Source: Klebsiella phage K64-1. Taken from it: a stretch of 64,000 nt of DNA. Under the pieces are notes generated by a model that ran no database searches, had not been told where the DNA came from, and saw nothing but the letters and a program-made list of their open reading frames with translations. A program made the position numbers and the translations under genes. This document shows, piece after piece, positions 1-64,000 of the stretch (position 1 is its first letter; each line of letters opens with the position of its first letter). The stretch is from the sequence record AB897757.1. One strand, 5' to 3'.

Positions 1-158
1 AAATCCCAACCAATAAACCCGTAGTTAGCATCAAATGCTCTCTCTCCTTTTCTGGTATTGAAGTGATTGAGAAGGTCTTGACGAATCAATTCTTCATTGT
101 ATAATGTTTTTGTTCTACCCTGTGATGGAGTAGAGAATCCTTTAAAAACAACAGCCAT
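1..158 (-). CDS. 25: baseplate wedge protein gp25-like (partial; N-terminal 52 aa, continues past window start)
   Basis: Minus-strand ATG at 158..156 with aggaaa RBS. Translation MAVVFKGFSTPSQGRTKTLYNEELIRQDLLNHFNTRKGERAFDANYGF matches the TRKGxRxFDPxFG core of T4 gp25 / P2 gpW. Not in the ORF track because it is truncated. Confidence 0.6.
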   Translation of the reverse strand, partial: MAVVFKGFSTPSQGRTKTLYNEELIRQDLLNHFNTRKGERAFDANYGFIGWD

Positions 159-172
159 ATATTAATTTCCTG

Positions 173-661
173 TTATGCAGCAGATTCGACGATTTTAGCC
201 ATTTTATCTGCACGAGATGTAGTTTGACGATACCACAGTGAATCACGCATCTGACGTCCTGCTTCTTTATAATCAGCACGACCTAAAGCAGCAAGTGCTT
301 TTTTGAAGTTAAGCACTTTTGATTTACCCATTTGAAATACCATTAGCCATAGAACACGCTGTACGCTCTCTGGAGCAGTCATACCGAATTGTTGATAGAT
401 TGCCTTAGCATCATTGTATGCTTGCTTAGCGTCCTTCAGGAGCAGTGCATCAGCCTCTTTTTCAGTTAGTCCGTTTTTAAAGTTCTCGTCTTTTAAAACC
501 AGATGACCATAACCAATAGTATCTAGACCTAAACTGTCTTTGTATACCCAGAATTTGTTATTTTTAAAATAACCAAGTTTAGACTGATACGCGATAGTAC
601 CTTCAAACTCTTTGACTTCAGTAAAAAACTGTTTATCATCACTAGAAATAGACCAGCCCAT
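173..661 (-). CDS. e: T4-type lysozyme (GH24) endolysin
   Basis: 162 aa. VYKDSLGLDTIGYGHLV and MVFQMG motifs align with T4 lysozyme IYKDTEGYYTIGIGHLL and MVFQMG. Similar length. Confidence 0.85.
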   Translation of the reverse strand: MGWSISSDDKQFFTEVKEFEGTIAYQSKLGYFKNNKFWVYKDSLGLDTIGYGHLVLKDENFKNGLTEKEADALLLKDAKQAYNDAKAIYQQFGMTAPESVQRVLWLMVFQMGKSKVLNFKKALAALGRADYKEAGRQMRDSLWYRQTTSRADKMAKIVESAA

Positions 662-697
662 ATTTTTACCTCTTTTACTTAAATTTACTTGACTTTG

Positions 698-705
698 TAT
701 TTATA
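698..705 (-). promoter_or_regulatory. T4-type late promoter TATAAATA upstream of lysozyme gene
   Basis: Reverse complement reads TATAAATA about 37 nt upstream of ATG at 661. RBS gaggt precedes the start. Confidence 0.4.
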
Positions 706-771
706 TTAGAGTACATTTGTGTAGTAAAAATATTTGAATACTAAAAGTTGTTAATTATTTAAGGTGTTTAA

Positions 772-1194
772 ATGAGATATGATGTTATAAATGATGTTAG
801 ATCTGTTTCTGTGGTTAATAAAAAGTACTTCTATAAACCAAAAGGTAAAAACAATAAGAAGTATGAAACCATGATTGATGAATACGGAACAGAAGTGATT
901 TGTAGTGATGTACCACTTGATTTACCAGAATTATCATATGAATACAATTCTTCAATTGAATACAATGGTGTTGAATTTATTTATAGAACGTATATTCGTG
1001 ATAATTATGAAATAGAAGATGATGTAATATACAGACGTATGACAGATTACACTGAAATGGATGAAGATGAGCTATTCCAGTACTCATTGGTATTCGAGAA
1101 TGATAATTTTTCATTTCATGATGCAGTTAAAATACAAAAATGGTTAATTATGAGATATCGTGTTGTTAATACCACGATTAATGTGGATTTATAA
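772..1194 (+). CDS. hypothetical protein
   Basis: 140-aa ORF transcribed divergently from the lysozyme gene. No recognisable motif. Confidence 0.5.
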   Translation: MRYDVINDVRSVSVVNKKYFYKPKGKNNKKYETMIDEYGTEVICSDVPLDLPELSYEYNSSIEYNGVEFIYRTYIRDNYEIEDDVIYRRMTDYTEMDEDELFQYSLVFENDNFSFHDAVKIQKWLIMRYRVVNTTINVDL

Positions 1195-1205
1195 GAGAGA
1201 TTATA

Positions 1206-1664
1206 ATGCCTGGAAAACCAGAGAAAATTTATGACAATACAGAATTAACCATTATACTGAAAAATGTAAACAATTACAAGAATCTAAGTCCAGAAGCAAG
1301 GGAGATATTCAAAGAAACGAATATCAAGTACAAACCGAGCGGTGCTGAAAGACCCTATGATATGGATCATATTTACTATATGATTAGAGTTCTAACTGAG
1401 GTGTCACTTGATTCAGTACGAAAGAGTTTAATTCTAAGGACAGGTGTCGTATTATCTAACAAGTCAATACAAAGATATAAGCGTGTTGTAATAGAAGTAT
1501 CAAAAGCATTGTTATGTACACACAGAAATGGTATTGCTTTGCATATCAAAAAAGAAGAAGGAAAACACTATTTGACAGATCAACAAAGTTCCAGATTGAA
1601 CACTTTAAGGAAAAAGGGTGTCCCTATTGAGGACATGATAAATTACCTACAGAAACTGCTCTAG
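1206..1664 (+). CDS. hypothetical protein
   Basis: 152-aa ORF. Spacing of 11 nt after the previous ORF suggests an operon. No recognisable motif. Confidence 0.5.
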   Translation: MPGKPEKIYDNTELTIILKNVNNYKNLSPEAREIFKETNIKYKPSGAERPYDMDHIYYMIRVLTEVSLDSVRKSLILRTGVVLSNKSIQRYKRVVIEVSKALLCTHRNGIALHIKKEEGKHYLTDQQSSRLNTLRKKGVPIEDMINYLQKLL

Positions 1665-1783
1665 CCCAGTATTCATGCGGGTTGTAGGAATTAGGGACAC
1701 CTTTTTGTGTGTTTTTTTGATGCAGTGTCCCTAATTCAGACCAAGAACCCAGTATTCATGCGGGTTGTAGGAATTAGGGACAC
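1665..1783. repeat. two perfect 36-nt direct repeats (1665-1700, 1748-1783) plus an inverted copy of the repeat 3' end (1725-1737), forming a 13-bp stem with a 24-nt loop
   Basis: cccagtattcatgcgggttgtaggaattagggacac occurs twice, 83 nt apart. gtgtccctaattc is the reverse complement of gaattagggacac. The element starts immediately after the stop of the 1206..1664 ORF. Confidence 0.85.
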
Positions 1784-2079
1784 TCTATTATTAAATTCAT
1801 ACTTTTTCCTGTCCTTAATTCAATAGGTCGCTACGCTCAAATATTGATCTTCGTCACTCCGTTCCTCGATCAATATTAAAATCGGCAATTTGCGTTTTGT
1901 TCTCGATTCGCAAGCGAACCAATCACAAACCCGCAGCGAATTGCGAATCTCCCTTCGGTCAGTCAGTAATACTGCTTTTGGGAGAAAGCAACTCTCGGAG
2001 TGATGAAAAACGAATTCCATTCGGCTCATGAAAAACCAACGAATAGTCGGTTCTGTTGAATTACTTGAATTATAATTGT

Positions 2080-2162
2080 CTGTATTCACTTCTAAGGAGT
2101 TTTATACACTTCCTTAGTGGTTCTATGTCTTAAACAAGAAAACACATCAGAATGCGATACAG
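2080..2162. repeat. 83-nt repeat copy 1 with internal stem-loop (ctaagga...tccttag)
   Basis: About 90 percent identical to 2304..2386. Contains taaggag and the complementary cttccttag flanking a ttttataca loop. Confidence 0.8.
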
Positions 2163-2303
2163 GAATTCTCGTAGCTATTATCAAAGCAGTTACTATCCAT
2201 TGTAATATCTGCTCCATTAAAAGGACGCCCAATTCAGTACTGAAAAACTTTTGTGAGTAAGTCATTTCAAACTGATTAATTTAAGGACACCCATTTAAAT
2301 TAA

Positions 2304-2386
2304 CTGTATCCACTTCTAAGAAGTTTTATACAATTCCTTAGTGGTTTTATGTCTTAAACAAGAAAACGCCTCAAAATGCGATACAG
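2304..2386. repeat. 83-nt repeat copy 2
   Basis: Aligns to 2080..2162 with about 7 mismatches. Same internal inverted repeat. Confidence 0.8.
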
Positions 2387-2417
2387 AGCGTTTTATGTGG
2401 TGTTACAGAAATAACAA

Positions 2418-2445
2418 AAGGAGCACAAGGCTCCCTTTGTTATTA
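2418..2445 (-). terminator. rho-independent terminator downstream of gp5-like gene
   Basis: ggagc-acaag-gctcc hairpin. On the minus strand it is followed by a U-run (ttttgttatttct). Confidence 0.5.
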
Positions 2446-10541: not shown

Positions 10542-12686
10542 GTGTTAACATTTAAACGTATTACTATGCGAAATTTTTTCTCCTTTGGTAATGCACCACA
10601 AACAATTGATCTAGATAGTTCAGATATTACACTTGTTCTTGGTCAAAATAATGATGCAGTTATTGAAGGAAATGATAGTTCAGGAAGAAGAAATGGTGTT
10701 GGTAAATCCGCTATTATTCAGGGAATTGTTTTTGGTTTGTACGGAAAAAGTATTGCAAATGAAATTAAAATTCCCAATTTAGTGAATAAAATAAACGGAA
10801 AGAACTGTGAAGTAAAAATTGAATTTGAAAAAGATGGAATTTCTTATATTGTAGAACGTGGGCGTAATCCTGCGTTTTTTAATTTCATTAAACTCAGTGA
10901 TGATCAAATAAATGACGAAAGTCGTGGTGAAAAGAAAGATACACAAGAAGATTTAAATGAAATTTTGGGTATTTCACAATTTCTGTTTGAACACATTGTA
11001 GTGCTGAATGCTAACGTAGAACCTTTTCTTTCCATGTCTGCACAAAAACAACGTGATATGATCGAAGAACTTCTCGGTATTACACAATTAACCGAAAAAG
11101 CACAGCTTCTTAAAGATATGCAAAAGGAAACTAAGCGTTTAGCAGAGCAAGAACGTTTTAAAAATGAAACTATACAAGCAAGTAATGAACGAATTCAAAA
11201 AAGTATAGAAACTCTTCAGGAACAGGCAAATAAATTCGAAATTGACAAGTCAAACCGAATCAGTGAACTAGAAAAACAGATTGAAACCTATTCTGTTCTA
11301 AATTTCGAAGAACTATATGAACAAGCCAATATAAAAGAAGAATCATTAATTCATAATGCTAAGAAATCCAATTTAGAAAATCGCGTATCTGATTTAGTAC
11401 TTAAATATGAATCGTATAAACGAGATATTGAACATAATAAAGCAATACTAAAGATTAATATCGAACGCCTTCAACAAGTTGACATTGTAAGTGAATTAAA
11501 GAATCATGAAGAACTTGAATTGTGGAAACAACTTGAATCTATACTAAAAGAGAACATAACACAAAAGAATTATAAAGAACAAAAAATAAATTTATTAAAA
11601 AGTACGTTACAAAGTTCTAAATCTTCTCTTGAATTGGAAAAAAACAAACTAGATGTGGTACTCAATAGCAAATGCCCACTGTGTAAATCAAGTCTGGAGC
11701 ATAATGAGCATAGTTCTGATATTAAATCAAAAATTCTGAAAACAATTACTGATATTGAGAACTCGATATTAACTATTGAATATGATATTAGTATACTTCA
11801 TGAAGAAGTTGATTCAATTGACGTGTTTGATATGCCTCATAAACCAGAAACTGTGTATAATACACTTACTGAAGCACAAATGCATGAGCATAAGTTACAG
11901 GAGTTAATTAAACAGTACGAAATTGATCAAATCAATATTTTTGAATCAGAATTAATGTCATCATATGAAGAATTAAATTCTTTTGAACTAAAAGATGTAC
12001 CAGATGCACTAACCAAGACTGAAGTTCGTGAACTGGAACTTGCTTATGATTCATTAAAACAACAATTACAACGAGAATTTAGTACAGTAAACACATATAT
12101 TAGTCAAATTAACACACTTCAGAATGAATCCATTGTTGTGGTTAATTATGACTCTTATAATGAACTGGATAAGCTACAAAATCATCAAGATTTTATGGTT
12201 AAACTTCTTCTCAATAAAGATTCATACTTGAGAAAACGTATCATCGAACAAAATATTTCATTTTTAAACAACAGACTTCAGTACTATATTGATATGTGTG
12301 GTTCAGAGCACAATGTTAAGTTCTTGACTGATTTGAGTGTTGAAATTGAAAAGAATGACCAGTACTTTGACTATAAACAGCTTAGTCGCGGTGAACGTAC
12401 TCGTGTTAATATCGCACTGTCTTGTGCCTTCAGGGATACATATGAATCATTATATCAAAATATCAATTTAATTTGTTGTGATGAGGCATTAGAAACTGGC
12501 TTGGATGCTAGTGGTGTATTGAGAGCATGGATGATATTTCAGGACATGGCATCAATCAGAAATAAAAATGTCTTTGTTATTTCACACAGAGATGAACTTA
12601 TTTCAAAAACCGAAAATATCATGAAAGTTACTAAAGAGGATGGATTCAGTACTGTTCAGTACTGTACATTAGACGATATATATTAA
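10542..12686 (+). CDS. 46: recombination/repair ATPase gp46 (Rad50/SbcC-like)
   Basis: Walker A GRRNGVGKSA. Long coiled-coil middle. C-terminal signature region. Placed after gp47. Confidence 0.85.
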   Translation: MLTFKRITMRNFFSFGNAPQTIDLDSSDITLVLGQNNDAVIEGNDSSGRRNGVGKSAIIQGIVFGLYGKSIANEIKIPNLVNKINGKNCEVKIEFEKDGISYIVERGRNPAFFNFIKLSDDQINDESRGEKKDTQEDLNEILGISQFLFEHIVVLNANVEPFLSMSAQKQRDMIEELLGITQLTEKAQLLKDMQKETKRLAEQERFKNETIQASNERIQKSIETLQEQANKFEIDKSNRISELEKQIETYSVLNFEELYEQANIKEESLIHNAKKSNLENRVSDLVLKYESYKRDIEHNKAILKINIERLQQVDIVSELKNHEELELWKQLESILKENITQKNYKEQKINLLKSTLQSSKSSLELEKNKLDVVLNSKCPLCKSSLEHNEHSSDIKSKILKTITDIENSILTIEYDISILHEEVDSIDVFDMPHKPETVYNTLTEAQMHEHKLQELIKQYEIDQINIFESELMSSYEELNSFELKDVPDALTKTEVRELELAYDSLKQQLQREFSTVNTYISQINTLQNESIVVVNYDSYNELDKLQNHQDFMVKLLLNKDSYLRKRIIEQNISFLNNRLQYYIDMCGSEHNVKFLTDLSVEIEKNDQYFDYKQLSRGERTRVNIALSCAFRDTYESLYQNINLICCDEALETGLDASGVLRAWMIFQDMASIRNKNVFVISHRDELISKTENIMKVTKEDGFSTVQYCTLDDIY

Positions 12687-12718
12687 AAAAAGGGGAGCAT
12701 ATTAGCTCCCCTTTTTTA
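12687..12718. terminator. bidirectional rho-independent terminator between convergent genes
   Basis: aggggagc-atatt-agctcccct hairpin flanked by A-run and T-run. Confidence 0.65.
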
Positions 12719-13733
12719 TTATTGTCATAATTTCATTCAACGATGCAGGTGATACGGTTTCAGTCCACCCATCACCGAATAATTCTTTTGTTAAGTGTCT
12801 TGCTTTTATGGTTCTTTTTATTTCTTTTTCTATGTTAAATGCATCATTACAATTTTCATATACTTTGTGGTATACAACATTCAATTTGTACTTACATTTA
12901 TTTTTATATGAACCCATTCTGTGTTTGATATTCTTTGTTATACCGAATTTATAACCAACTATATTATTATAATCATCAGATACTTCTAAAATGTATATAC
13001 CTGAACTAAAATCAGAAGATTTATAACCATTTTTGTAACTAACAGAATTACACAAAGGACACCCTTTATCTCGCATAAAATTGTCATATGTCATAGACCA
13101 TGTATAATTGCATTTACAAGTTAAAATGACTTTACTAAAAACACCATTAAAGTTCTTTTCATCTATTAATTCAAATTTAATGCCAGTTTCTTTGCTTTTA
13201 ATTTTTAAATTCTCATTTAATTCATTTATACTGTATTTGTGAGTACCTGAACATTTCAAACAACCAATATTATTACTGAAAAATGAATCATAAGTGGTAG
13301 TATTCCATTCGTATGCTTCAGAATGTTTAGTATTGTCATTGCATTTTAGTTTTAAATATGTTTTTGTTTTATTATATTCATCAAACCCGAGGAATTCCAG
13401 TGTCCCACCTCGTTTAATGCATTCATTTTCCACATTTTGAATTAAAATTTCAGGTGTTAACTTATTCAATGAAGGCTTTCTGAACTTTTTTGATTCTATA
13501 TTTCTCAGATATCTATATAATTTGTTAATTCTGTAATTATTATAAGTTATATTATCATGTGTTATTGAAGTAAGTGTATTATTACCTAACCATTTTTCTT
13601 CAATAATGAATCCATTGAATTTTATATTAAATTTGGATAACCTTTTCGATAAATCGTTGAAATATTCCCATGGAGTTCTGGAATTATAGTTAACGTGAAC
13701 TAAAATAATATCATCTGGTAAAGATATTATCAT
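12702..13733 (-). CDS. putative homing-type endonuclease: two Cys-rich repeats plus C-terminal GIY-YIG/T5orf172-like domain
   Basis: GIYILEVSDDYNNIVGYKFGIT gives GIY...YIG spacing, then R and a C-terminal DGWTET. The N-terminus has two modules of the type L.C..........GC..C. Paralogous to 23731..24957 and 44202..45350. Confidence 0.6.
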   Translation of the reverse strand: MIISLPDDIILVHVNYNSRTPWEYFNDLSKRLSKFNIKFNGFIIEEKWLGNNTLTSITHDNITYNNYRINKLYRYLRNIESKKFRKPSLNKLTPEILIQNVENECIKRGGTLEFLGFDEYNKTKTYLKLKCNDNTKHSEAYEWNTTTYDSFFSNNIGCLKCSGTHKYSINELNENLKIKSKETGIKFELIDEKNFNGVFSKVILTCKCNYTWSMTYDNFMRDKGCPLCNSVSYKNGYKSSDFSSGIYILEVSDDYNNIVGYKFGITKNIKHRMGSYKNKCKYKLNVVYHKVYENCNDAFNIEKEIKRTIKARHLTKELFGDGWTETVSPASLNEIMTIIKKGS

Positions 13734-14224: not shown

Positions 14225-14353
14225 GATATAATCTCTTATATTATATATCTAATAAATTTATTTACTTCAATAAATACCTATGTAAATAATCTTTCTGTAT
14301 AATGCATAATTCAATACATAATTTCTTGATACGTTAGATACGGAATAGCAAAA

Positions 14354-14388
14354 TAGGTCAGTACTTTTCAGTACTGACCTATTTTTTT
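14354..14388. terminator. strong bidirectional rho-independent terminator
   Basis: aggtcagtact-tttc-agtactgacct is a perfect 11-bp stem, followed by a T7 run and preceded by an A-run. Confidence 0.75.
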
Positions 14389-23730: not shown

Positions 23731-24957
23731 ATGATGACATTTGATGAAGTGCATGAACAATTTATTAAAATTGGTAATAAGAGAGAACCATCTTATTTTA
23801 AAAAAATAATTTTAAAAGAAATTGAAATGTATAATTTAAATTATGAATTTATTGGGTTTAATATTAATTCTATTATTGAATTTAAAGGAGCAAGAACGAA
23901 GTTAGTACTAAAATGTCCAGTACATGGTATTTTTTCTGATTGTACTTTCAATAATTTTACAAAATCTAATGCACAGGGTCGCCGCTGTCCTGAATGTGCT
24001 AAAGAATCTAAAGCTTTGAAACAACGTTGTTGTACTGAAGAATTTATTGAAAAATGTAAAAGAGTACATAATGATTTTTATGATTACAGTAAGACTATAT
24101 ACGGAAAAAATGCTCATGAACACGTTGTTGTTACCTGTAAATTACCAAATCATGGAGATTTCAAAATACGTCCTTCATGTCATTATAATAAAGCACAAGG
24201 TTGTCCTATATGTGCAAAAGAAAAAAGAAAAATTGATGAACAGGATATAATAACCAGATTAAATGAAATACATAATAATCACTTTGGATTTGATAAATTC
24301 GTATATAATGGATCGGAAAATAAATCTATAGTAACTTGTTTAGTGCATAATAAAAATTATGAAGTTAAAGTTGGGAGTTTACTTTATGATCATGGCTGTG
24401 CATTGTGTTCAACAAGAGCAAAACACACAAAAGAATCATTCATATCGATGGCAGTACTGAAACATGGTAATGTATATGATTACAGTAAAGTACAATATGT
24501 AGATTTATTCACTAAAGTTGAAGTTGTTTGTAATAAAGATAATCATGGTTCATTCTTTATTACTCCAACAAGTCATATACATGGTTTAAAACCAAATGCA
24601 TGTCCAAAATGTTCAAAATATGGATTTCAACCAAATAAACCTGGATTCTTTTATATTCAAAAAATAACTAATTCATGTAAAGAAGTTATATCTTATAAGT
24701 ACGGTATTACATGTGATTTAATAAGACGATTGAATGAGCATAACAGAAATTCTATATATGTGCATGAATATATTTTTCATGAATACTTTGATAATGGGTA
24801 TGAAGCAATTGAACTTGAAAAGCTTATAAAAAAATCAATTCCTTCTTGGTATTTGAATTCTAATGAATTTGGTGATGGTTTCACTGAAACATACGATCCT
24901 AAATACCACAAAGATGTTATTAATATAATCAAAAAACAACAAAGGAGAAATCCATGA
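23731..24957 (+). CDS. putative homing-type endonuclease: four Cys-rich repeats plus C-terminal GIY-YIG/T5orf172-like domain (segD position)
   Basis: Four modules of about 65 aa (LKCPVHG...GRRCPEC, VTCKLPNHG...GCPIC, VTCLVHNK...GCALC, VVCNKDNHG...ACPKC). C-terminus GFFYIQKI...YKYGIT...R...DGFTET. Sits between gp23 and downstream genes, where T4 carries segD. Confidence 0.6.
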   Translation: MMTFDEVHEQFIKIGNKREPSYFKKIILKEIEMYNLNYEFIGFNINSIIEFKGARTKLVLKCPVHGIFSDCTFNNFTKSNAQGRRCPECAKESKALKQRCCTEEFIEKCKRVHNDFYDYSKTIYGKNAHEHVVVTCKLPNHGDFKIRPSCHYNKAQGCPICAKEKRKIDEQDIITRLNEIHNNHFGFDKFVYNGSENKSIVTCLVHNKNYEVKVGSLLYDHGCALCSTRAKHTKESFISMAVLKHGNVYDYSKVQYVDLFTKVEVVCNKDNHGSFFITPTSHIHGLKPNACPKCSKYGFQPNKPGFFYIQKITNSCKEVISYKYGITCDLIRRLNEHNRNSIYVHEYIFHEYFDNGYEAIELEKLIKKSIPSWYLNSNEFGDGFTETYDPKYHKDVINIIKKQQRRNP

Positions 24958-26153: not shown

Positions 26154-27941
26154 ATGAGTATTAGTTTTAATCACCCCCAGAATACTATAACTAGTACTGG
26201 AAATTCTGGATCATTAAATCTAGTGGTTCTTGGTGGTTCTCCTACAAACCCAAGACCAATACGTTTTAATTCTTCATCCGTTATTATGCCTGTGCAATCA
26301 CTACCCACAGGTGAAGCTGGTGCTATTGTTTTTGACAAAAGCACAAAAACCATGAAATATCATGATGGCTCTAACTGGGTTGAATTATTAAGTGCTTCCG
26401 ATGTTGTAGCACCCCTTAATGTTCAAATCAATAACATTATCAATTCAATGGGAACAAAAATTGATACTGTTAATTATTCAAGTGCTGCAATACCGATGGC
26501 TAGTATTAGTGGTACTAATTTGAATATAGTATTTCCCAATTCCAATCCAACTGTTGGTAGTACCGGATTGTATACCAGTGCAAAAACTGGTAGTATTATG
26601 TACTATAGTTTAGCGTCAGGCCAAACATATGCCAGTATTCGTGAACAAATGTCAGGAAAAACCAATGGTCAAAGTGGTAGAACCGGTTCTCAAACTTCTC
26701 CGTGGTTAACTTCAGATGGATGGTGTTTGGCTGATGGTATGTGGTGGACGTGGCAAGGAGAGAATGGTACAGTACTAAAACAAACACCAAACCTGAATCA
26801 AAGTGCATATTTTAAGGGTTTATCTTCTGGTGGAATTACAAAAACTGATTCACCAATTGGGCAAAGTGGTTCTCTTGATACCTATACATTCACAATCCCA
26901 GATCATTATCACGGTGTAGGACAAATGAATGGAAATTCTGGACCTACTGGTGACGATGGTTCATTTATATTTGGAAGATCTTGGAATGATGGAAATTCAT
27001 ATAGAGGACTTACTATTACTGGAGATCTCAACCGACGTGAAGAACGTTCGATTAATGGGAGTGATCCAAATATTGCATTGAGTACAACGAATTCTATTTA
27101 TTTAAATGCATCTCAACGTACAATTTCACACTCACATAACTTACAGAACTTCGACGTAGCACACTTCAATGTTGCAGTACTGTATAATATTGCTGAACCA
27201 AGCTTGGCATTATCGGAAAGTGTGGCAAATACAAAATTCGTACTAAAATCCGGTGATACTATGACTGGCAACTTGAATGTAGCCAACACTCTTAGAATCG
27301 CAGGTAATAGTACTAACATTCAGTTATATTTTACCAACTCTACTTTATCTGAAAGAGCAGCAATTTATCACCAAAGTACAACAAATACATTAAGACTGCG
27401 TTCAAATGGTGGTTCTGAAGTATATATTAATGGTGATGGTTCTCTGTATGTTCCAGGTTCCACAACCGTTACTGGTAATTTTGTATCACAAGGTTCCGCA
27501 ACTGTTTCTGGTAACATTATATCACAGGGTTCTGCAACAGTTTCTGGTAACATTACATCACAAGGTTCTGCAACTGTCTCTGGTAACATTACATCACAAG
27601 GTAGAAATGTAGTAAGAGCTATTAATGGGATAACTGCTGATGGTAATGGAAACTTAAATGTAACGAATTCTAGTGGTACTACTTCCGGCTGGCATAAAGA
27701 TGAAGGTACCGGTATTATCACACAATGGGGTTACATCCAAAGTACTGGTAATGATATCCATGTAAACTTTCCACGAACTTTCAGTTCAGCATGTTACTGT
27801 GTAACATTGGGTCAAATTTTCAACTCTCATGCTGACCAAGGACGAACTGCACGTTTATTAGCACCTGCGTCAGTTTCTGGATTTGATTTTTATATCGGTT
27901 CATCAGAAACTGGGTGTTACTGGCAAGCAATCGGTCGATAA
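26154..27941 (+). CDS. tail fibre-like protein with tandem 12-aa repeats
   Basis: N-terminal PIRFNSSS...GAIVFDKSTKTMKYHDGSNWVEL is a common tail-fibre N-terminal motif. GNFVSQGSATVS is repeated 3.5 times. Repetitive Ser/Thr/Gly-rich remainder. Confidence 0.55.
   Translation: MSISFNHPQNTITSTGNSGSLNLVVLGGSPTNPRPIRFNSSSVIMPVQSLPTGEAGAIVFDKSTKTMKYHDGSNWVELLSASDVVAPLNVQINNIINSMGTKIDTVNYSSAAIPMASISGTNLNIVFPNSNPTVGSTGLYTSAKTGSIMYYSLASGQTYASIREQMSGKTNGQSGRTGSQTSPWLTSDGWCLADGMWWTWQGENGTVLKQTPNLNQSAYFKGLSSGGITKTDSPIGQSGSLDTYTFTIPDHYHGVGQMNGNSGPTGDDGSFIFGRSWNDGNSYRGLTITGDLNRREERSINGSDPNIALSTTNSIYLNASQRTISHSHNLQNFDVAHFNVAVLYNIAEPSLALSESVANTKFVLKSGDTMTGNLNVANTLRIAGNSTNIQLYFTNSTLSERAAIYHQSTTNTLRLRSNGGSEVYINGDGSLYVPGSTTVTGNFVSQGSATVSGNIISQGSATVSGNITSQGSATVSGNITSQGRNVVRAINGITADGNGNLNVTNSSGTTSGWHKDEGTGIITQWGYIQSTGNDIHVNFPRTFSSACYCVTLGQIFNSHADQGRTARLLAPASVSGFDFYIGSSETGCYWQAIGR
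27474..27603 (+). repeat. 3.5 tandem copies of a 36-nt unit inside the tail-fibre-like gene
   Basis: ggtaacattacatcacaaggttctgcaactgtctct units encode GNI(T/I)SQGSATVS. Confidence 0.8.
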
Positions 27942-36981: not shown

Positions 36982-40318
<3,337 letters not shown>

Positions 40319-41846: not shown

Positions 41847-42932
41847 ATGAAAACTCTAGCAGAAATTCGTGCAGAACTAAAAGCTCAAGCTGAAAAACAA
41901 GAAGCTCAAAAGAATGGTACATTTGTTGGTGAACGTAAACCAGATTCTTTCTTGGCTTTTTGGAATGTTGGTTTAAATGAAACTCTAAACCTTCGTTTTC
42001 TACCTGATGCAGATGAATCAAATCCATATTTCTGGCGTGAACGTGATATGATTAATCTTACCTTTAATGGTATTAAAGGTGTTAAACAAGAACGTGTAAC
42101 TGTTCAAGTGCCATGTAATGAAATGTGGGTACCAAAAAGCTGCCCAGTATTGACTGAAGTTCGCAAATGGTTTGATGAAGCAAATAAAACCGAAAACGAG
42201 GAACTGAAAAAACTAGCATCCTCTTACTGGAAAAAGAAAACCTATCTGATGCAATGTTTTATTGCTCCAGACAGTGCACCAGTTAAAGATGATATTGCTC
42301 CAGAAAACCCAATTCGTCGAATTCTAGCTAATAAAGATATCTTCGAAAAAGTAAAATCCATTCTACTTAATCCTGGTATCAAAGAAATGCCAACTCACTT
42401 CGAATATGGTCGTGATTTTGGTATTACTAAAACTAAAAATGGTGGTGGGTATAACAATTATGATAGTTCACAATTTTCTATGTCTGAACGTCCACTGAGT
42501 GCAGAAGAACGTGCAGCAATTGAAAAATATGGTCTGTATAATCTAAATGATTTTATGCCAAAACAACCAAATGCAGAAGAACTAAAAGCAATCAAAGAAA
42601 TGTTCGAAGCATCAGTGAATGGTGAAGCTTATGATCCAGATCGTTGGGCTTTTGCTTACCGTCCAGCAGGTGTTCAAAAACCACAAACTACATCTCCTGC
42701 TGATGTGATTGCTAGTGCAAATATTCAAACTCCATCTGTAAGTACTGAACCAACAACCCCTGTTGTAGAGAGTACCAGTACTGCTGCATCAGACCTGCTA
42801 AATCGCCTGAAAACTAACAGTACTGCACCAGTACAGGAACCAGTAGTTGCATCAGCACCAGTTCCTGAAACTACCAAAAGTACTGCTTCAGCAGCAGATC
42901 TAATTGCCCGTCTGAAACAACAACAAAAATAA
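41847..42932 (+). CDS. 32: single-stranded DNA-binding protein gp32
   Basis: FWNVGLNETLNLRFLPD matches T4 gp32 LKLDNAGNGQAVIRFLPS. Cys/His residues lie at positions resembling the T4 gp32 zinc site. Ser/Thr/Ala-rich C-terminal tail. Confidence 0.7.
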   Translation: MKTLAEIRAELKAQAEKQEAQKNGTFVGERKPDSFLAFWNVGLNETLNLRFLPDADESNPYFWRERDMINLTFNGIKGVKQERVTVQVPCNEMWVPKSCPVLTEVRKWFDEANKTENEELKKLASSYWKKKTYLMQCFIAPDSAPVKDDIAPENPIRRILANKDIFEKVKSILLNPGIKEMPTHFEYGRDFGITKTKNGGGYNNYDSSQFSMSERPLSAEERAAIEKYGLYNLNDFMPKQPNAEELKAIKEMFEASVNGEAYDPDRWAFAYRPAGVQKPQTTSPADVIASANIQTPSVSTEPTTPVVESTSTAASDLLNRLKTNSTAPVQEPVVASAPVPETTKSTASAADLIARLKQQQK

Positions 42933-46698: not shown

Positions 46699-48234
46699 AT
46701 GGAAATACCAAAAGTAGGAACAGGAACGTTCAGACCAAAGGCCAAAAAAGGTACTTCGTGCAAATTGATTATTCAAGATGAGGTTAATTGTAAGTTCGAA
46801 GGGTTAGATCCTTCCTTGCGTTCATTATTGATAAAAGAAGTATCATATATTTTACCATATGCGAAATTCACTCCAGCAGGTAGACTTGGCCGCTGGAATG
46901 GTGAAGTGAATTTTATGAATATGGGTGGTGGTACATATTTACATATGCTTGATAAACTTCTTCCAATATTAGATGAGTACGAAGTACAAATTGAATTAGA
47001 AGATCATAGGATTGATTATGGTTTTCAATTCGATCCGATTGATGAGAATATTTTCAGTGATGTAGTATTTCCAATTGGGCATCACATGGAAGGTAAAAGT
47101 ATTATTCTTCGTGAACATCAAGTAAACTCAGTAAATGCATGTTTAGCAAATCCACATGGATTATTATTAGCAGCAACTGGAGCCGGAAAGACAATTATCT
47201 GTGCAGCGTTAGCTCGTTCAGTACAGAAATACGGTCGTTCAGTAATTGTTGTCCCTAGTACTGATTTAGTTCAACAGACATATAATGATTATGTTATGAT
47301 GGGACTTGATACTGGGATGTTTTGTGGTGCTCAAAAGGATTTCGGTCATCAACATACTATTACTACATGGCAATCATTTAACTCCTTGTGGAAAAAAACC
47401 AAGAAGGGTGAAATAGAATTAACAGAGCAAGATGTTCATGATTTTATTGATGGTGTTGTTTGTGTTATTGTTGATGAAGTACAAACAGCCAGAGGTGATG
47501 CATTATCTAATCTATTATCAAAAGTAATGCAGAATGTTCCTTTGCGTTGGGGTTTAACTGGAACAATTCCAAAAGATCAAATTGAAGCAGCCAGAATTAA
47601 ATGCAATCTTGGCAATGTGATTTATACTGTTACATCAAAAGAATTACAAGATAAAAAGATACTAAGCACGTGTAACATTAGTTGTATAAAATTAAAAAGT
47701 TCAATGAAGTTTGAGAATTATGCCGAAGAATTAAAATTTCTAACAACTGATAGAGAAAGAATGTCATATGTTGCTAAGCTTATTCAAGCATTATCTGAAT
47801 CAGGTAATACATTAGTATTGGTTGATAGAATTGAATGTGGTAATCTTTTATGTGAATTTTTAGGTTTACCAAAATCAGAATTTGTTAAAGGTGACACAAA
47901 GAAAAAAGATCGTGAATCTTCTTATGGTGAAATTCGCTGGGCTGATAATAAAATTTTAATTGCTACATATGGGGTTGCTAGTACAGGCATAAGTATTTCA
48001 CGACTCTATAACGTAGTTCTTATAGAACCTGGAAAAAGTTTCATTAAGACAATTCAAAGTATAGGACGTGGATTACGCGTTGCCGAAGACAAAGACCATG
48101 TTGAAATCATTGATATCAGTAGTTCAACAAAATACAGTGCAAAACATCTCAGAGAGCGTTTGGTTTATTACAAGGAAGCAAAATATCCACATAATGTCAT
48201 AGAAGTAAAAGACTGGCAAAATCTCTCAGACTAA
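46699..48234 (+). CDS. uvsW: SF2 helicase UvsW-like
   Basis: Walker A LAATGAGKT. DExx box VIVDEVQ. 511 aa. Confidence 0.7.
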   Translation: MEIPKVGTGTFRPKAKKGTSCKLIIQDEVNCKFEGLDPSLRSLLIKEVSYILPYAKFTPAGRLGRWNGEVNFMNMGGGTYLHMLDKLLPILDEYEVQIELEDHRIDYGFQFDPIDENIFSDVVFPIGHHMEGKSIILREHQVNSVNACLANPHGLLLAATGAGKTIICAALARSVQKYGRSVIVVPSTDLVQQTYNDYVMMGLDTGMFCGAQKDFGHQHTITTWQSFNSLWKKTKKGEIELTEQDVHDFIDGVVCVIVDEVQTARGDALSNLLSKVMQNVPLRWGLTGTIPKDQIEAARIKCNLGNVIYTVTSKELQDKKILSTCNISCIKLKSSMKFENYAEELKFLTTDRERMSYVAKLIQALSESGNTLVLVDRIECGNLLCEFLGLPKSEFVKGDTKKKDRESSYGEIRWADNKILIATYGVASTGISISRLYNVVLIEPGKSFIKTIQSIGRGLRVAEDKDHVEIIDISSSTKYSAKHLRERLVYYKEAKYPHNVIEVKDWQNLSD

Positions 48235-55825: not shown

Positions 55826-56095
55826 ATGGACGCAAAAAACCAAAATCTATTAGATAGTATTTTTGAACACACATCCGAAAAAAGATCAATACAGCATTTT
55901 AGTAATAGAGCAGATCACGCGATTAACTCTGTTATTAATTTACTTGAATATATAGAAACTGAATTTGATGCAGACGACGCTGAAGATTTAAAAAAGCGTT
56001 TATTTCTTAGTATAAAGAATAGAGACTATAAAAAGTTTCAAAAAGGATTGGAGAATATTGCACTCGATGAATCCAGAAAGAATAAGGATAATTGA
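55826..56095 (+). CDS. hypothetical protein
   Basis: 89-aa ORF. Confidence 0.4.
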   Translation: MDAKNQNLLDSIFEHTSEKRSIQHFSNRADHAINSVINLLEYIETEFDADDAEDLKKRLFLSIKNRDYKKFQKGLENIALDESRKNKDN

Positions 56096-58425: not shown

Positions 58426-59079
58426 ATGAGTTATTATTCTGATGATTATGAACAAAATAAGAAGGCTAAATCAGAAATTTCTGATTTACTTACTGACTTG
58501 TATGATATTGGTTTTTATGATAAAAATGATATCCCACCACCGGTAAGCACGGCACCTGATTATGGTTATGATTATATTACAGAAGGTGTACAAGGTACTT
58601 ATTCACTGGATGAAAATGGTATTCCAGTTAATGTAGTACAACCCACTATCCCAGAACAGTACTATACTGAACCTGTTATTCAAAAACCAAAAAATACTAA
58701 AAAATGGGATTTAGTTGAAGATCACTATCCAGGTACTAAAAGTACTAAAGTCTATAGTATTAAATGTAATTCAAATGACCAAATTATTATGAATAACATT
58801 TTAATGCACGAAGCCGCTTTAACTTTAGTAAATCTTTTAAATGAAGGTAGAATGTTAACTGATCCAAAAATTCTTGGTATAATCAGCAGTGGTATTCAAT
58901 TTACTTCAGTTATGAATGAGGTCATAAAAGTATCAAAAGAACGTCTTGTGGTACTAAATGAAGCTCGTTATGATGATGCAAAAGAATTGGATGTAAAAAT
59001 TGCCGAAAAGAAAAATGAAGCATATAAACTGAAAAAACGTGTACTGGATTTTCTAAAAACTGAAGGCTACATTAAATAG
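58426..59079 (+). CDS. hypothetical protein
   Basis: 217-aa ORF. Confidence 0.5.
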   Translation: MSYYSDDYEQNKKAKSEISDLLTDLYDIGFYDKNDIPPPVSTAPDYGYDYITEGVQGTYSLDENGIPVNVVQPTIPEQYYTEPVIQKPKNTKKWDLVEDHYPGTKSTKVYSIKCNSNDQIIMNNILMHEAALTLVNLLNEGRMLTDPKILGIISSGIQFTSVMNEVIKVSKERLVVLNEARYDDAKELDVKIAEKKNEAYKLKKRVLDFLKTEGYIK

Positions 59080-59096
59080 TACTTCAAGGGAATGAA

Positions 59097-60830
59097 ATGA
59101 AAAAATATCTGAAAAATTTAGATACAGAAACAGAAAATCTATTTAATGAAATTCGTTCATTACTAAGTAACAAAAATAGTAAATCATGGCATACCTCAAT
59201 AAATGCTTCTGGAAGGGAGCATTTAAAAAACGCGGTACTCAGAGTCTATCCAAGTAGTGATTTTTTATTATCAGAAGCATTAAAACTGATTATCAATCAA
59301 GAAGAACCACCGTATGCAGTATGTGGTAGAAAATGTAAGTATTTTAATGGTCAGTATGATAGATATTGTTCATTGGGTGTCAAACCCAATAAAAACACTT
59401 ATTGTGAGAAGTGCAATAAACACTGGCGAGAAAAGAAAAACAAATCCACAAAAGAAAACTGTCTAAATCAGTACAATGTTGAACACCCTTTTCAGCGAAA
59501 TGATGTGAAAACAAAAGTACATGAAACTAAAATACGAAAATACGGTACTAATTATAATAAAATAATTTCAAACAAATCATTCAGTACTTATTATAATAAA
59601 ACTGGATATTCATGTCCATTGAGTAATCCAGATATACAACAAAAAATTAAAGAAACTAATATTAAAAATTATGGATATGAAAATCCCGGTTCATCTCCAT
59701 TAATTGTACAAAAAAGAAAAAATACCCAGAAGAAATTATATGGTCATGAACATTCTATGCAGAATGGTGATATAAAACTAAAGGTATTGATTAAATCTGC
59801 CACACAGAGAATGGATAGTATAAATTCAAAACTTGAATTTACTAATTTTATTCCTTTGTTTGATATTAGTGATTTAATTGGTTTGGATACATATAACAAA
59901 ATGCCATACTGGTGTAATACACATGGTTTATTTTATTCATGTAGTAATTATAAAATTATATGTAATGAATGCACTCCCGTTCATATAAGCACACAACACA
60001 AAGAGATATTAAATTTTATAGAAAATCTTGGTATTGAATGTGTAACGAATACACGCTCTGTTTTAAAAAGTACTATGGAATTGGATATTTTTATACCTGA
60101 CTTGAATGTTGCAATAGAAATTAATGGTATGTACTGGCATAGTACTGAATACAAAGAACGACTGTATCATCAAAACAAAATGTTGGAATGTAAAGAACAT
60201 GGCATTCACTTAATACAGATATGGGAAGATGAATGGAATACCAAACAAGATTTGGTTAAATTTCGTTTGATGAATGTATTAAAATGCTCCAGTACTATAT
60301 ATGCAAGAAAATGTAAAATAAAAGAAATCAATAAAAAAGAATGTGATAATTTTATTAATACATACCATATCCAAGGTTCTAGTTCATCATCTATTAGAAT
60401 TGGTTTATATTACGAAAATGAATTATATGCAGTTATGACATTTGGAAAATCCAGATTTGATAAAACTGTTCAGTATGAATTGATACGATATTGTTCAAAA
60501 AGTACAGTCGTTGGCGGTGCATCTAAATTATTAAAGTACTTTGAGAAGAAATACAAACCAGTGTCGTTGATTTCTTATGCAGATGCGTGTTGGAGTACTG
60601 GTGATTTATATATTAAACTTGGTTTTACATATAATGGATTAACTGAACCTGGTTATTTTTATTACAAATCAAGTACTGGTAGAATTTCAAGGCATCAATG
60701 TCAAAAGAAAAAACTAGTCAATCAGGGATATGATGAAAATTTATCAGAATATCAAATATGTACCACTGTACTTAAATATAACAAAATATTTGATTGTGGT
60801 AATTTTAAATTCACTAAATATTACATATAA
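59097..60830 (+). CDS. three-part putative homing endonuclease: zinc-ribbon plus K-YG-x-NP repeats, Vsr/DUF559-like PD-(D/E)xK domain, C-terminal GNAT-like domain
   Basis: CGRKC...CEKC. Repeats RKYGTNYNK / NYGYENPGSSPLIV / KLYGHEHSMQ. ELDIFIPDLNVAIEINGMYWHS fits the D...E.NG..WH pattern of Vsr/DUF559 nucleases. VVGGASKLL...SYAD...LGF looks like an acetyl-CoA-type fold. Confidence 0.55.
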   Translation: MKKYLKNLDTETENLFNEIRSLLSNKNSKSWHTSINASGREHLKNAVLRVYPSSDFLLSEALKLIINQEEPPYAVCGRKCKYFNGQYDRYCSLGVKPNKNTYCEKCNKHWREKKNKSTKENCLNQYNVEHPFQRNDVKTKVHETKIRKYGTNYNKIISNKSFSTYYNKTGYSCPLSNPDIQQKIKETNIKNYGYENPGSSPLIVQKRKNTQKKLYGHEHSMQNGDIKLKVLIKSATQRMDSINSKLEFTNFIPLFDISDLIGLDTYNKMPYWCNTHGLFYSCSNYKIICNECTPVHISTQHKEILNFIENLGIECVTNTRSVLKSTMELDIFIPDLNVAIEINGMYWHSTEYKERLYHQNKMLECKEHGIHLIQIWEDEWNTKQDLVKFRLMNVLKCSSTIYARKCKIKEINKKECDNFINTYHIQGSSSSSIRIGLYYENELYAVMTFGKSRFDKTVQYELIRYCSKSTVVGGASKLLKYFEKKYKPVSLISYADACWSTGDLYIKLGFTYNGLTEPGYFYYKSSTGRISRHQCQKKKLVNQGYDENLSEYQICTTVLKYNKIFDCGNFKFTKYYI

Positions 60831-61832: not shown

Positions 61833-61884
61833 AATTTTTGAACAAAAAGACAAAAATAAGCTATAATTATGGAGTAACAAGGGA

Positions 61885-62592
61885 ATGTTTGTTCCACCTA
61901 TTATTAGCAGATATTCTTATGTTGATTATAAAAGAATTGAAGGCGGCTCTCAGGGTCGCCTTTATTCTACCCCAACCGGAAATCTGCCATCGGTAACTAC
62001 AATTCTAAGTGCCACATCCAATGATGAAGGATTGAAAAAATGGCGTGAATTTGTGGGAGAAGAAAAAGCCAATGCTATCACACTGGAAGCAACGACAATT
62101 GGTACCTTTATGCATGAAAATTTAGAAAATAGATTAAATTCTAAGCCAGATCATGAAGGTGGTATGCCAGTACGTGTATTAGCAAGAAAAATGGCTGATA
62201 AAATTCAAGAAGAAGCGTGGCCTAAAATTAATGAAGTATGGGGTCAGGAAGTACCACTGTACTATGAAGGTCTATGGGCTGGAACAACAGATTTGGTTGG
62301 AATTCATGACGGAATTCCAACCATCATGGATTACAAAAATTCTAGAAAAAAGAAAACATGGAATCATATTGAAAATTACCGTTTACAAATTGCCGCATAT
62401 GCGTTGGCTCATAACTATATGTATGGAACTGATATACGACGTGGTGTAATATTTGTTTGTGTAAGAGAAGATCCTCAAAATTTACAATATCAGGAATTTA
62501 TAATTGAAGGTGATGATTTTGATGAAGCCGTACAAATGTGGATTTCTAGAGTAGAGCAATATTATATAATGAATGGGCAAATTATAAATTAA
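61885..62592 (+). CDS. PD-(D/E)xK nuclease superfamily protein (RecB / lambda-exonuclease-like)
   Basis: TTDLVG...IMDYKNS has a D...D/E-x-K arrangement. A QxxxY-like YRLQIAAYA follows. Confidence 0.45.
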   Translation: MFVPPIISRYSYVDYKRIEGGSQGRLYSTPTGNLPSVTTILSATSNDEGLKKWREFVGEEKANAITLEATTIGTFMHENLENRLNSKPDHEGGMPVRVLARKMADKIQEEAWPKINEVWGQEVPLYYEGLWAGTTDLVGIHDGIPTIMDYKNSRKKKTWNHIENYRLQIAAYALAHNYMYGTDIRRGVIFVCVREDPQNLQYQEFIIEGDDFDEAVQMWISRVEQYYIMNGQIIN

Positions 62593-62612
62593 ATTAGCAA
62601 ACTGGAGTAACA

Positions 62613-63149
62613 ATGAAAGACAACGTATACATTTATATTATTAAAGTACTGGAAGGTAAAGGTTACAATATCAATGAAGTAATCAAGAAAAGCGATAAAG
62701 AAATCAAATCTCTTCCTCTATCTCGTCAGATTATTGAGGGTATTATTTCTTATAAAGAAAAAGGTTCCCCAAAACTAGAAGAAATCGAAAAGAAAATCTT
62801 TGATAAGAGATATAACCCAGACGTGGAAGTAAAAACTTCAGATATTATCGAATATGTAAAAAACACCGATGAACAAAATGAAGTCCTGGATAATATTAAA
62901 CAAGAACAACTTGAAGAAATTCCTGATGATGTAATTGTAATTAAACATACTGCTCCTAACAAAGAAGATTTGGATATCATCAAAGATGCCCTTCAACAAA
63001 AAGAACTCCGTACAATTGCAAAATATGTTAAACACCTGAAAGACACCGTTCCTTCTGCTATTATGTCTGCTGTTGATAGTGTGACTATTAATGACCTAAT
63101 TAATGCACGAATTGCAGAAGTAAAATCAGCAGAAGAAAAAACTAAATAA
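62613..63149 (+). CDS. hypothetical protein
   Basis: 178-aa ORF. Confidence 0.45.
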   Translation: MKDNVYIYIIKVLEGKGYNINEVIKKSDKEIKSLPLSRQIIEGIISYKEKGSPKLEEIEKKIFDKRYNPDVEVKTSDIIEYVKNTDEQNEVLDNIKQEQLEEIPDDVIVIKHTAPNKEDLDIIKDALQQKELRTIAKYVKHLKDTVPSAIMSAVDSVTINDLINARIAEVKSAEEKTK

Positions 63150-63180
63150 TCCTATAACGAACTTTGATTAAGGGTTTAAT

Positions 63181-63756
63181 ATGGCTCAACAACAAATCGC
63201 TTTACAACAAATCAGAACAGGTAAACAGCGTGATTTACCGGATGCGTTGGAAAAAGGACAACTAGGATTCAGTACTGACGTAGGTCGTATGTTCGTTGGT
63301 TTACCATCCTCATCTGATCCTGCAAGTTTAGTAGCAGGTCGTAATTGGGACAATGCACCAAATAGTGGGAAAGAAAATGTAGAAATTATTACGGAGTTTA
63401 CACCATGGCAGGTTGTTTCTAATATTGTAAACCGACCGTATGTATTCTCTGTACCGAAGGGTGGCAGTACGCAAATTTCAATTCAAAGTGATAATAGAGT
63501 GTTTCTTGATTATATGGCATATAACGATACTTCCAGTATTCTGGAAAGTGGTAATGTACAAATGTTGTGTAATGATTCAAAAACACTACTGGCACAATTT
63601 AATAATACAACTCAAGAAGAGGGTATCATTTCATTGACTTTCTCGGATGCAACATTCGATGAAAGTACTAAATTGATGGTATTCACTATCACTAATAATG
63701 ACACGGAAAGTGATTATAGTATAGAATTCGTATATAGAGGCTGGGATAAACCGTAA
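63181..63756 (+). CDS. hypothetical protein
   Basis: 191-aa ORF. Confidence 0.45.
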   Translation: MAQQQIALQQIRTGKQRDLPDALEKGQLGFSTDVGRMFVGLPSSSDPASLVAGRNWDNAPNSGKENVEIITEFTPWQVVSNIVNRPYVFSVPKGGSTQISIQSDNRVFLDYMAYNDTSSILESGNVQMLCNDSKTLLAQFNNTTQEEGIISLTFSDATFDESTKLMVFTITNNDTESDYSIEFVYRGWDKP

Positions 63757-63775
63757 AAGGCTCCCAGCCTTTTTA
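63756..63775 (+). terminator. terminator-like hairpin
   Basis: aaaggct-ccc-agccttt followed by ttat. Confidence 0.45.
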
Positions 63776-63824
63776 TCCCCTAAAATAATTAAAAACAATA
63801 AAAAAAAACTTAAAAGGATGTAAA

Positions 63825-64000
63825 ATGATTAACGTTATTAAACGTGATGGATCAAAAGAACCACTCGACCTTGATAAAATTCACCAGATTTTATTTTTTG
63901 CATGTGAAGGTATTTCTGGTGTGTCTGTGTCCGAAATTGAAATTCGTGCTAAATTGCAATTTCATGAAGGAATTAAAACTTCTGTAATTCATGATATCCT
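63825..64000 (+). CDS. nrdA: ribonucleotide reductase large subunit NrdA (N-terminal ATP-cone, partial)
   Basis: MINVIKRDGSKEPLDLDKIHQILFFACEGISGVSVSEIEIRAKLQFHEGIKTSVIHD matches the ATP-cone of class Ia NrdA (VTKRDGS.E..NLDKIH). Confidence 0.8.
   Translation, partial: MINVIKRDGSKEPLDLDKIHQILFFACEGISGVSVSEIEIRAKLQFHEGIKTSVIHDI

Follow-up and report, generated by a model that had tools for sequence, protein, structure and literature searches.

AGTACT as a highly iterated palindrome of RaK2-like jumbo phages, possibly read by a phage-encoded DNA-binding protein

Short palindromes repeated far beyond expectation are known from cyanobacteria, where HIP1 (GCGATCGC) is one of several such words (Xu et al. 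2018, PMC5861425; Elhai 2015, PMC4390886). Here we describe a comparable accumulation of the hexamer AGTACT, often extended to the 8-bp palindrome CAGTACTG, in a stretch of 64,000 nucleotides of Klebsiella phage K64-1 (AB897757.1, positions 1 to 64,000; "the window" throughout) and in the genomes of its relatives. HIP1 is the closest known analogue of the phage word. Both are hyper-abundant short palindromes that occur clade-wide, in non-coding DNA and in all frames of coding DNA, both have one-base deviants that are biased to the outer positions, and for both it can be disputed whether selection or biased repair maintains them. There are also clear differences. A cognate methyltransferase has been proposed for the cyanobacterial palindromes (PMC4390886), whereas none was found for AGTACT. 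The carrier is a virus and not a cell, and the phage word is AT-rich, measures 6-8 bp and is in excess by 3-12 fold (the 8-mer up to 83-fold against a first-order Markov model, Markov-1) in comparison to 15-300 fold for HIP1. Positional conservation is weak in the phages, whereas HIP1 sites are reported to be conserved, and the phage word is additionally found in the early promoters of two genera.

Other known systems share single aspects of this pattern. Chi sites and the DNA uptake sequences (DUS) and uptake signal sequences (USS) of bacteria are asymmetric and orientation-dependent words read by RecBCD and by the DNA-uptake apparatus, respectively. Like AGTACT they are over-represented, short and genic, keep their density without positional conservation, occasionally form inverted pairs in terminators and could be explained by drive as well as by selection; the phage word, however, is a palindrome. 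The metbox of MetJ (AGACGTCT) is an 8-bp palindromic operator of a ribbon-helix-helix repressor and occurs in few promoters only. It resembles the phage word in being an 8-bp palindrome (bound, in the metbox, by one dimer) and in the phasing of promoter copies by whole helical turns (10 and 20 bp), but it lacks genome-wide iteration, and no such protein was identified in the phage. AGTACT is also the recognition site of ScaI and Eco255I, although no cognate enzyme was found in the phage, and the usual tendency of phage genomes is to lose restriction sites, not to gain them. E. coli has far fewer sites for its SlmA protein than the phage has copies of AGTACT, about 900 per 346 kb. The SlmA site is a palindrome read by a dimer and shares the central hexamer with the phage word, but its required flanks (G, T and a purine) are missing or disfavoured in the phage. 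The SlmA-binding sequence of E. coli is GTGAGTACTCAC (Tonthat et al. 2011, PMC3020112). The iteration of AGTACT was not described in the RaK2 and CBB genome papers or in the literature found by full-text searches.

With 99.3% identity to Klebsiella phage Muenster and 99.1% identity to RaK2, an Alcyoneusvirus of about 346 kb, the window is the core of a Klebsiella jumbo phage of the RaK2 kind, which has roughly 530 proteins. It carries genes for baseplate, head, polymerase, terminase, recombination and primase-helicase functions; 72 genes were called, covering 94% of its length, consistent with the published annotation of a near-identical phage. For genome-wide figures the window was joined to the remainder of the RaK2 genome, giving a RaK2-like pseudo-genome. 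Counts were compared with base composition, dinucleotide-preserving shuffles (100 runs), Markov-1 and third-order (Markov-3) models, and a shuffle of synonymous codons within genes.

The window holds 126 copies of AGTACT, one per 508 bp. The original prediction had spoken of about 90 sites and an excess of about 4-fold. Both figures were too low, as the excess amounts to 5.8-8.3 fold under the composition and dinucleotide nulls; its expectation of about 22 copies from mononucleotide composition agrees with the computed 21.6. Dinucleotide-preserving shuffles gave 15.2 +/- 3.6 copies with a maximum of 25 over 100 shuffles. Against the Markov-3 model, which had been proposed as a check, the excess holds both in the window (126 observed, 60 expected) and in the RaK2-like genome (937 observed, 397 expected; 79 under Markov-1). 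The 8-bp form, anticipated in around 30 copies, is present exactly 30 times as CAGTACTG in comparison to 0.58 expected. All three codon phases and both coding orientations are represented, as had been noticed at the outset, with 72 sites in phase 0 (AGT ACT, Ser-Thr), 14 in phase 1 and 37 in phase 2; genes on both strands carry copies and four copies are intergenic.

A codon-preserving shuffle had been named beforehand as the refuting test, and the excess survives it. Coding sequence of the window contains 123 copies, in comparison to 40.2 +/- 5.4 after synonymous-codon shuffling (z=15), with enrichment of 2.7x, 5.5x and 3.3x in phases 0, 1 and 2, respectively, and CAGTACTG is found 28 times against 2.7. 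No other hexamer among the 4096 deviates as strongly from this null. It had further been argued that such enrichment suggests a function since lytic phages usually deplete short palindromes, and other palindromes are indeed at zero while AGTACT accumulates: CTGCAG, CAGCTG and CTTAAG each have 0 copies in the window, and many 6-bp palindromes are wholly missing from it though 6-16 copies are expected. These absences are classical restriction-site avoidance, side by side with the AGTACT excess. Since the excess survives codon-preserving nulls and coexists with full avoidance of other palindromes, a cause at the level of DNA is required.

The same picture extends over the whole RaK2-like genome, where CAGTACTG occurs 248 times against 3 expected (Markov-1; up to 83-fold) and every 15-kb bin is enriched for AGTACT, by 5-32 fold. 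Genome-wide coding sequence contains 764 copies, in comparison to 240 under the synonymous shuffle (z about 40-49), and the ratio of observed to expected under that null is nearly equal across gene classes (2.95-3.85). Outside the early region, non-coding DNA has 2.8 sites/kb and coding DNA 2.36/kb. Genome-wide, the codon phases and the two strands are alike in density. The spacing of sites is Poisson, with a short-range coefficient of variation of 0.98, and helical phasing of genic sites was rejected because spacing is Poisson outside the early region. Taken together, the synonymous-shuffle excess, the uniformity across gene classes, the density in non-coding DNA and the Poisson spacing indicate that the cause acts on DNA and not on proteins or translation. 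With regard to the features by which highly iterated palindromes are recognised, AGTACT shows a many-fold excess over composition-aware nulls, occurrence in all frames, on both strands and in non-coding DNA, and clade-wide use of one word; a cognate orphan methyltransferase is absent among the annotated enzymes, which leaves room for an unannotated one.

On examination of the sequences around the sites, flank information was found only at positions -1 and +1. In the window, C precedes the hexamer in 44% and G follows it in 49% of copies, and over 1874 genome-wide half-sites C accounts for 49% of the -1 bases, T for 24%, A for 21% and G, which is disfavoured, for 5.8%. Left and right flanks are independent of each other, as the joint C...G form occurs 30 times in the window with 27 expected. 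Ratios of observed to expected, calculated against the synonymous null, climb by steps with the match to the paired half-sites CAGT and ACTG:

Bare GTAC: 0.83
Match at 5 of 6 positions (AGTAC or GTACT only): 1.39
AGTACT without C/G flanks: 2.0
AGTACT overall: 3.2
7-mer flanked by G, A or T: 2.1-2.5
7-mer flanked by C: 4.8
CAGTACTG: 9.2

The enrichment has the shape of a symmetric weight matrix with two independent half-sites. Such grading is unlike the all-or-none specificity of a restriction-type enzyme, and WGTACW or GTAC as the true unit was rejected since bare GTAC is slightly depleted. None of the single-mismatch neighbours is strongly depleted, and this speaks against a drive in which repair starts from a single precursor. 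The T:G-mismatch precursors AGTATT and AATACT have an observed/expected ratio of 0.90 and the other neighbours range from 0.75 to 1.49; an origin of AGTACT as a product of very-short-patch-type repair was rejected because the precursors are merely 10% under expectation.

Relatives were compared over 27-42 kb around the DNA polymerase gene, except E. coli phage ECO103 4-12-1, for which the whole 350-kb genome was used. AGTACT is the top over-represented hexamer, by 5.5-9 fold, around the polymerase gene of Sharanji (E. coli), PHA46 (Salmonella), GAP32 (Cronobacter), BF (Serratia) and XaC1 (Xanthomonas; polymerase 62% identical), and it ranks first in ECO103 as well, with 918 copies against 101 expected and 204 copies of CAGTACTG against 4.4. 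It is therefore the top hexamer in six sampled relatives; hosts across the clade are Klebsiella, Escherichia, Salmonella, Cronobacter, Serratia and Xanthomonas, and the density is about one site per 370-500 bp. The next relatives outward are not enriched, namely Vibrio phage 2.275.O (4 copies against 7.7) and Agrobacterium phage Atu_ph07 (1 against 3.5). Phosso is a further phage without enrichment; the clade itself has roughly 75 genomes. By these comparisons the iteration is a trait of the phage lineage. A terminase query for further relatives in IMG/VR matched a single locus, on a contig of 345,809 bp.

Individual sites turn over. In codon alignments, the position of window sites is kept in 29% of cases in Sharanji and 20% in PHA46, in comparison to 17% and 13% for hexamers generally, and this excess comes from phase-0 sites only, phases 1 and 2 being at background. 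Conserved Ser-Thr dipeptides are encoded by AGTACT in about 80% of cases per genome, in comparison to 48% when every Ser-Thr dipeptide is counted and 17% predicted by codon usage. By our own estimate this bias corresponds to a weak, persistent per-site advantage with a scaled coefficient of roughly 3.

Tail-spike genes are known for horizontal swapping of C-terminal enzymatic modules, and it is here that AGTACT is lacking. The C-terminal receptor-binding or depolymerase parts of nine tail-spike genes (pseudo-genome 322-346 kb, outside the window) are free of sites over up to 3.9 kb. Of the 25 sites in tail-spike genes, 22 lie in the first 41% counted from the N-terminus (p about 2e-6), and the widest gaps between sites anywhere in the genome, of 3.9 and 3.4 kb, are also in these genes. 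Resident DNA gains AGTACT, and newly arrived modules are without it.

The densest AGTACT region, at about 222-246 kb of RaK2, contains early genes, small open reading frames and long intergenic gaps. Sigma70-type early promoters in this region include AGTACT, in the form aaAAGTACTTGACA-N-yCAGTACTG(n)TATAAT. Promoters were defined without reference to AGTACT, after which copies in the spacer were counted:

RaK2-like genome: 31 strong early promoters, 23 with AGTACT in the spacer, where 20 have it 1-2 bp before the -10 box
ECO103: 27 strong early promoters, 17 with AGTACT in the spacer, where 14 have it 1-2 bp before the -10 box

A second AGTACT often overlaps the -35 box exactly 20 bp upstream; 19 pairs have this spacing, nearly all of them in the early region. 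None of the 126 window sites lies in such a promoter.

Our preferred explanation, to which we give a probability of about 40%, is that AGTACT, with CAGTACTG as the optimum, constitutes many moderate-affinity sites for a dimeric DNA-binding protein encoded by the phage. A weak, additive and genome-wide pressure on duplex DNA would hold about one copy per 370-500 bp, and the candidate protein would be symmetric, reading the two CAGT half-sites. In Alcyoneusvirus (Klebsiella) and Asteriusvirus (E. coli) the same site is also built into sigma70 early promoters; in those two lineages the reader probably doubles as an operator-binding regulator of early transcription. Reading by a protein fits best because the enrichment is graded, the half-sites are symmetric and independent, the word is specific to a lineage and phased copies are fixed in early promoters. 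That a protein reads AGTACT, and that this protein is encoded by the phage, is what we infer from these features; binding might mark or organise phage DNA, protect it or shut off early genes. Of the causes listed in the original prediction, a protein-binding site is thus the one that fits best, while a host protein is unlikely, since the flanks required by SlmA fail and the motif is presumably kept across hosts of different orders, and a modification target is unsupported by the annotated enzymes. The search for an orphan methyltransferase, which had been suggested along with it, found no AGTACT-cognate enzyme among the annotated RaK2 methyltransferases.

Several observations weigh against a binding protein or limit its role. 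No reader protein was identified, 6-8 bp is short for a typical helix-turn-helix dimer site, about 900 sites would titrate a regulator of low abundance, and generic biased gene conversion would give much the same statistics. In comparison with Muenster there are 3 substitutions in sites where 8.3 are expected, which places AGTACT at the 26th percentile among frequent hexamers, and between a pair of E. coli phages there are 3 where 2.0 are expected. Sites thus do not evolve clearly more slowly between near-identical genomes, and per-site selection is therefore unproven. Furthermore, none of 29 promoter-like sites of GAP32 has AGTACT upstream of the -10 box, although the same region holds 138 copies against 11.5 expected, and the published CBB promoters are also without AGTACT at the -10 box (PMC5259590 supplement). 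Because these phages are enriched while their promoters lack the word at this position, the promoter role is derived and cannot be the original function; the genome-wide iteration is older, and two genera recruited the word into promoters later.

A more far-reaching version, which we put forward only tentatively and regard as somewhat doubtful, is that AGTACT is the first element of the HIP type in a virus, with about 900 copies of the paired half-sites CAGT and ACTG serving as "self" tags and a dedicated reader telling phage from host DNA. Such a reader might serve protection, organisation, priming or recombination, and in two genera it might also shut early promoters through two operators 20 bp apart. 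The density of sites in the phage is about 10-15 times that expected, from base composition alone, for a host of 50-57% GC.

Much of the distribution could also arise if the word itself were functionless and sequence-biased mismatch repair or gene conversion turned near-cognates into AGTACT, possibly coupled to DNA modification as in Elhai's model for cyanobacterial HIP1. We consider such neutral molecular drive doubtful, yet it is a serious rival and would suit several observations: sites fill wherever constraints permit (synonymous positions in all phases, promoter spacers, beside the -35 box, terminator stems), their positions turn over with Poisson spacing, clear short-term purifying selection on them is lacking, newly acquired tail-spike modules are free of them, and replication is recombination-based, the window encoding gp46/47-, UvsX-, UvsY- and UvsW-like proteins and endonuclease VII. 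Drive fits less well with the shortage of just 10% in AGTATT/AATACT, set against a surplus of about 520 AGTACT and other neighbours at or above expectation. It is also at odds with the annotation, which includes no AGTACT-specific methyltransferase, and with the lack of a Vsr- or MutH-like protein among the RaK2 and Muenster product names or 13 Pfam-scanned proteins, a search narrower than a full proteome screen. A near-universal, fixed-position copy in the early promoters of two genera, moreover, exceeds what generic drive predicts. The same fixed placement would be unexplained if AGTACT were a signal of DNA metabolism, either a start site for the phage DnaG-like primase or an orientation-free, Chi-like stop of end resection, which we think unlikely. 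The specificity of E. coli DnaG is CTG, and CAGTACTG has this trinucleotide on both strands, completed by the G at +1 and the C at -1, so that it would template an AGUACU primer. One site per 370-500 bp on both strands would be a fitting interval for priming the lagging strand, or for protecting ends, where a circularly permuted genome replicates by recombination, a palindrome would serve forks or ends arriving from either direction, and the window has primase, helicase and recombination genes. Known primases, however, read trinucleotides, so that enrichment would be unneeded, and known Chi sites are asymmetric.

Identity with the ScaI site raises the question of a restriction-modification-type target, read by a methylase, another base modifier or a nickase of ScaI-like specificity. 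RaK2 encodes two methyltransferases and a Mom-family protein, and its DNA has been reported to resist many restriction enzymes (PMC3622015). We nevertheless judge this quite unlikely, as the enrichment is graded and extends to 8 bp, and as target status alone does not account for the accumulation of sites. The annotated modification enzymes were rejected as readers one after another. The product gp194, a C5 cytosine methyltransferase of 297 aa encoded outside the window (L004:38708-39601), matches the catalytic domain of animal DNMT3A/3B most closely (E about 2e-22) and over its full length, which fits the CpG methylation of RaK2 DNA reported from bisulfite sequencing (PMC3622015), and is CpG-specific; gp447 is a Dam-family adenine methylase of a kind widespread in phages; and Mom is restricted to the RaK2 lineage among the sampled relatives (Klebsiella in 6 records, Escherichia not in the top ten organism names). 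Still less probable is that the copies are host nucleoid-occlusion sites, by which phage DNA would block host division through SlmA. The 6-bp core of the 12-bp SlmA site GTGAGTACTCAC is identical and many hosts of the clade are enterobacteria, but binding by SlmA depends on G at position 1, T at position 2 and a purine at position 3 (PMC3020112), and the corresponding -1 flank is a purine in just 27% of half-sites. The RaK2-like genome has 3 copies of the full pattern GTNAGTACTNAC and ECO103 has one, GAGTACTC has 8 copies in comparison to 248 of CAGTACTG, and enrichment is equal in the Xanthomonas phage; the flanks thus largely refute this explanation. A by-product of translation, with codon or codon-pair bias for Ser-Thr helped by the phage tRNA-Ser(GCT), is hardly credible. 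It would be in line with the 57% of window sites that are phase-0 Ser-Thr and with AGT and ACT being the commonest Ser (34%) and Thr (50%) codons of a phage that encodes this tRNA. As a sole cause, however, it is refuted by the synonymous shuffle (123 copies against 40 with protein and codon usage preserved) and the codon-order shuffle, by the 5.5x and 3.3x enrichment in phases 1 and 2 and by non-coding DNA being at least as dense as coding DNA; symmetric flanks also speak against it.

One palindrome at 3-12x (8-mer 83x) in relatives whose hosts belong to six or more genera is a sign that a genome-wide process has gone unrecognised in a large group of jumbo phages, because phages are expected to purge short palindromes and this phage does purge many. 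RaK2-like jumbo phages are under consideration for therapy. If a reader protein exists, it would offer a handle on the marking of self-DNA without modified bases such as hydroxymethylcytosine, on the timing of early transcription and on the purpose of highly iterated palindromes, a 30-year question in cyanobacteria for which the phage is more tractable. Whether ScaI cuts at the about 900 sites would make a quick assay, and CAGAACTG is the comparison word for CAGTACTG in binder assays. The word may also be used as a signature for recognising the clade and recently acquired DNA within it.

Individual sites of the window are given below.

Starts of the 30 copies of CAGTACTG: 2235, 4644, 9016, 10307, 12647, 12657, 14369, 20781, 22396, 23282, 24452, 27175, 31551, 35036, 35891, 36856, 39003, 41306, 42776, 42818, 43116, 45418, 45537, 45897, 46481, 48469, 48556, 52631, 61733, 63270
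12645..12664, plus strand: tandem direct repeat, TTCAGTACTG twice, at the 3' end of a gp46-like recombination nuclease gene, with AGTACT at 12648 and 12658, 10 bp apart
14350..14385: intergenic hairpin terminator, AAAATAGGTCAGTACT-tttc-AGTACTGACCTATTTT and then a T run, with a 16-pair stem and a 4-nt loop
22396..22403: CAGTACTG in the intergenic DNA that separates the scaffold gene from the major capsid gene
27175..27188, plus strand: CAGTACTGTATAAT inside a tail-fibre gene, an AGTACTG and TATAAT module (AGTACTGTATAAT) as in early promoters
42741..42884, plus strand: four in-frame AGT-ACT (Ser-Thr) copies in 144 bp, in the C-terminal part of the single-stranded DNA-binding protein gene 41847-42932
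59078..59083, plus strand: AGTACT across the last codons and stop codon of a gene, directly before an EDxHD homing-endonuclease gene (7 copies)

The hairpin has one AGTACT per arm, at 14360 and 14370. Two terminator stems had been placed at 14354-14388; AGTACT is indeed in a stem there, but the structure is one hairpin with both arms carrying the word. As there are only 8 such two-arm hairpins in the whole RaK2-like genome, AGTACT as a building block of terminators was rejected. The module at 27175 is probably no promoter because a TTGACA-like -35 box is not present there.

In GAP32 (L025, 295-345 kb), several promoter-like sites have AGTACT abutting the -35 box on either side (AAGTACTTGACA or TTGACAGTACTG) with letters shared. 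At about 224.6-226.3 kb of RaK2 (L005:46600-48300), outside the window, roughly 1.7 kb of non-coding DNA contains about 25 AGTACT and divergent sigma70 promoters. It also contains an array of Fur-box-like repeats such as GAGAATGATAATGATTCTCATTT (L005:47597-47715, 47885-47905 and 48116-48136). This stretch, the AGTACT-richest of the non-coding DNA, had no match in an Rfam search; it might be regulated by iron, serve to titrate Fur or contain a cluster of small RNA genes.

The terminase large subunit (37649-40318) has 889 aa in comparison to 547 aa in relatives, with a LAGLIDADG_3 domain at aa 294-349, upstream of the Terminase_6N domain; the extra segment looks like an intein or a homing-endonuclease insertion. 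In Muenster, a 1.6-kb EDxHD homing-endonuclease gene (241828-243456) follows the helicase gene, and the window is without this gene at about 56100, where the corresponding gap lies between 55826-56095 and 56231. The mobile gene is thus polymorphic, being present in one and absent from the other of two phages that are 99% identical. The window gene 59097-60830, annotated as an EDxHD homing endonuclease, comprises DUF7487 together with a REase_MTES_1575 domain and, at its C-terminus, a Mom-like match that is weak and below threshold; it contains 7 AGTACT. The T5orf172/zinc-finger "endonuclease" paralogues (12702-13733 and 23731-24957) were rejected as readers of AGTACT, being widespread homing-endonuclease-like genes that are not specific to the clade.

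A few other words deviate from expectation in the coding regions of the window. TATTTA (14 against 46) and TAAATA (27 against 57) are depleted, as would fit if genes avoid ATAAATA, a late-promoter-like motif that has been described in relatives, and AAAAAA is depleted as well (152 against 230). A second over-represented family consists of ACTGGA, CTGGAT, AACTGG and TACTGG (z 5-8), with CTGGTG and ACTGGT as its counterparts in relatives (records L011, L020 and L023), and is probably an effect of preferred codon pairs such as ACT GGT.

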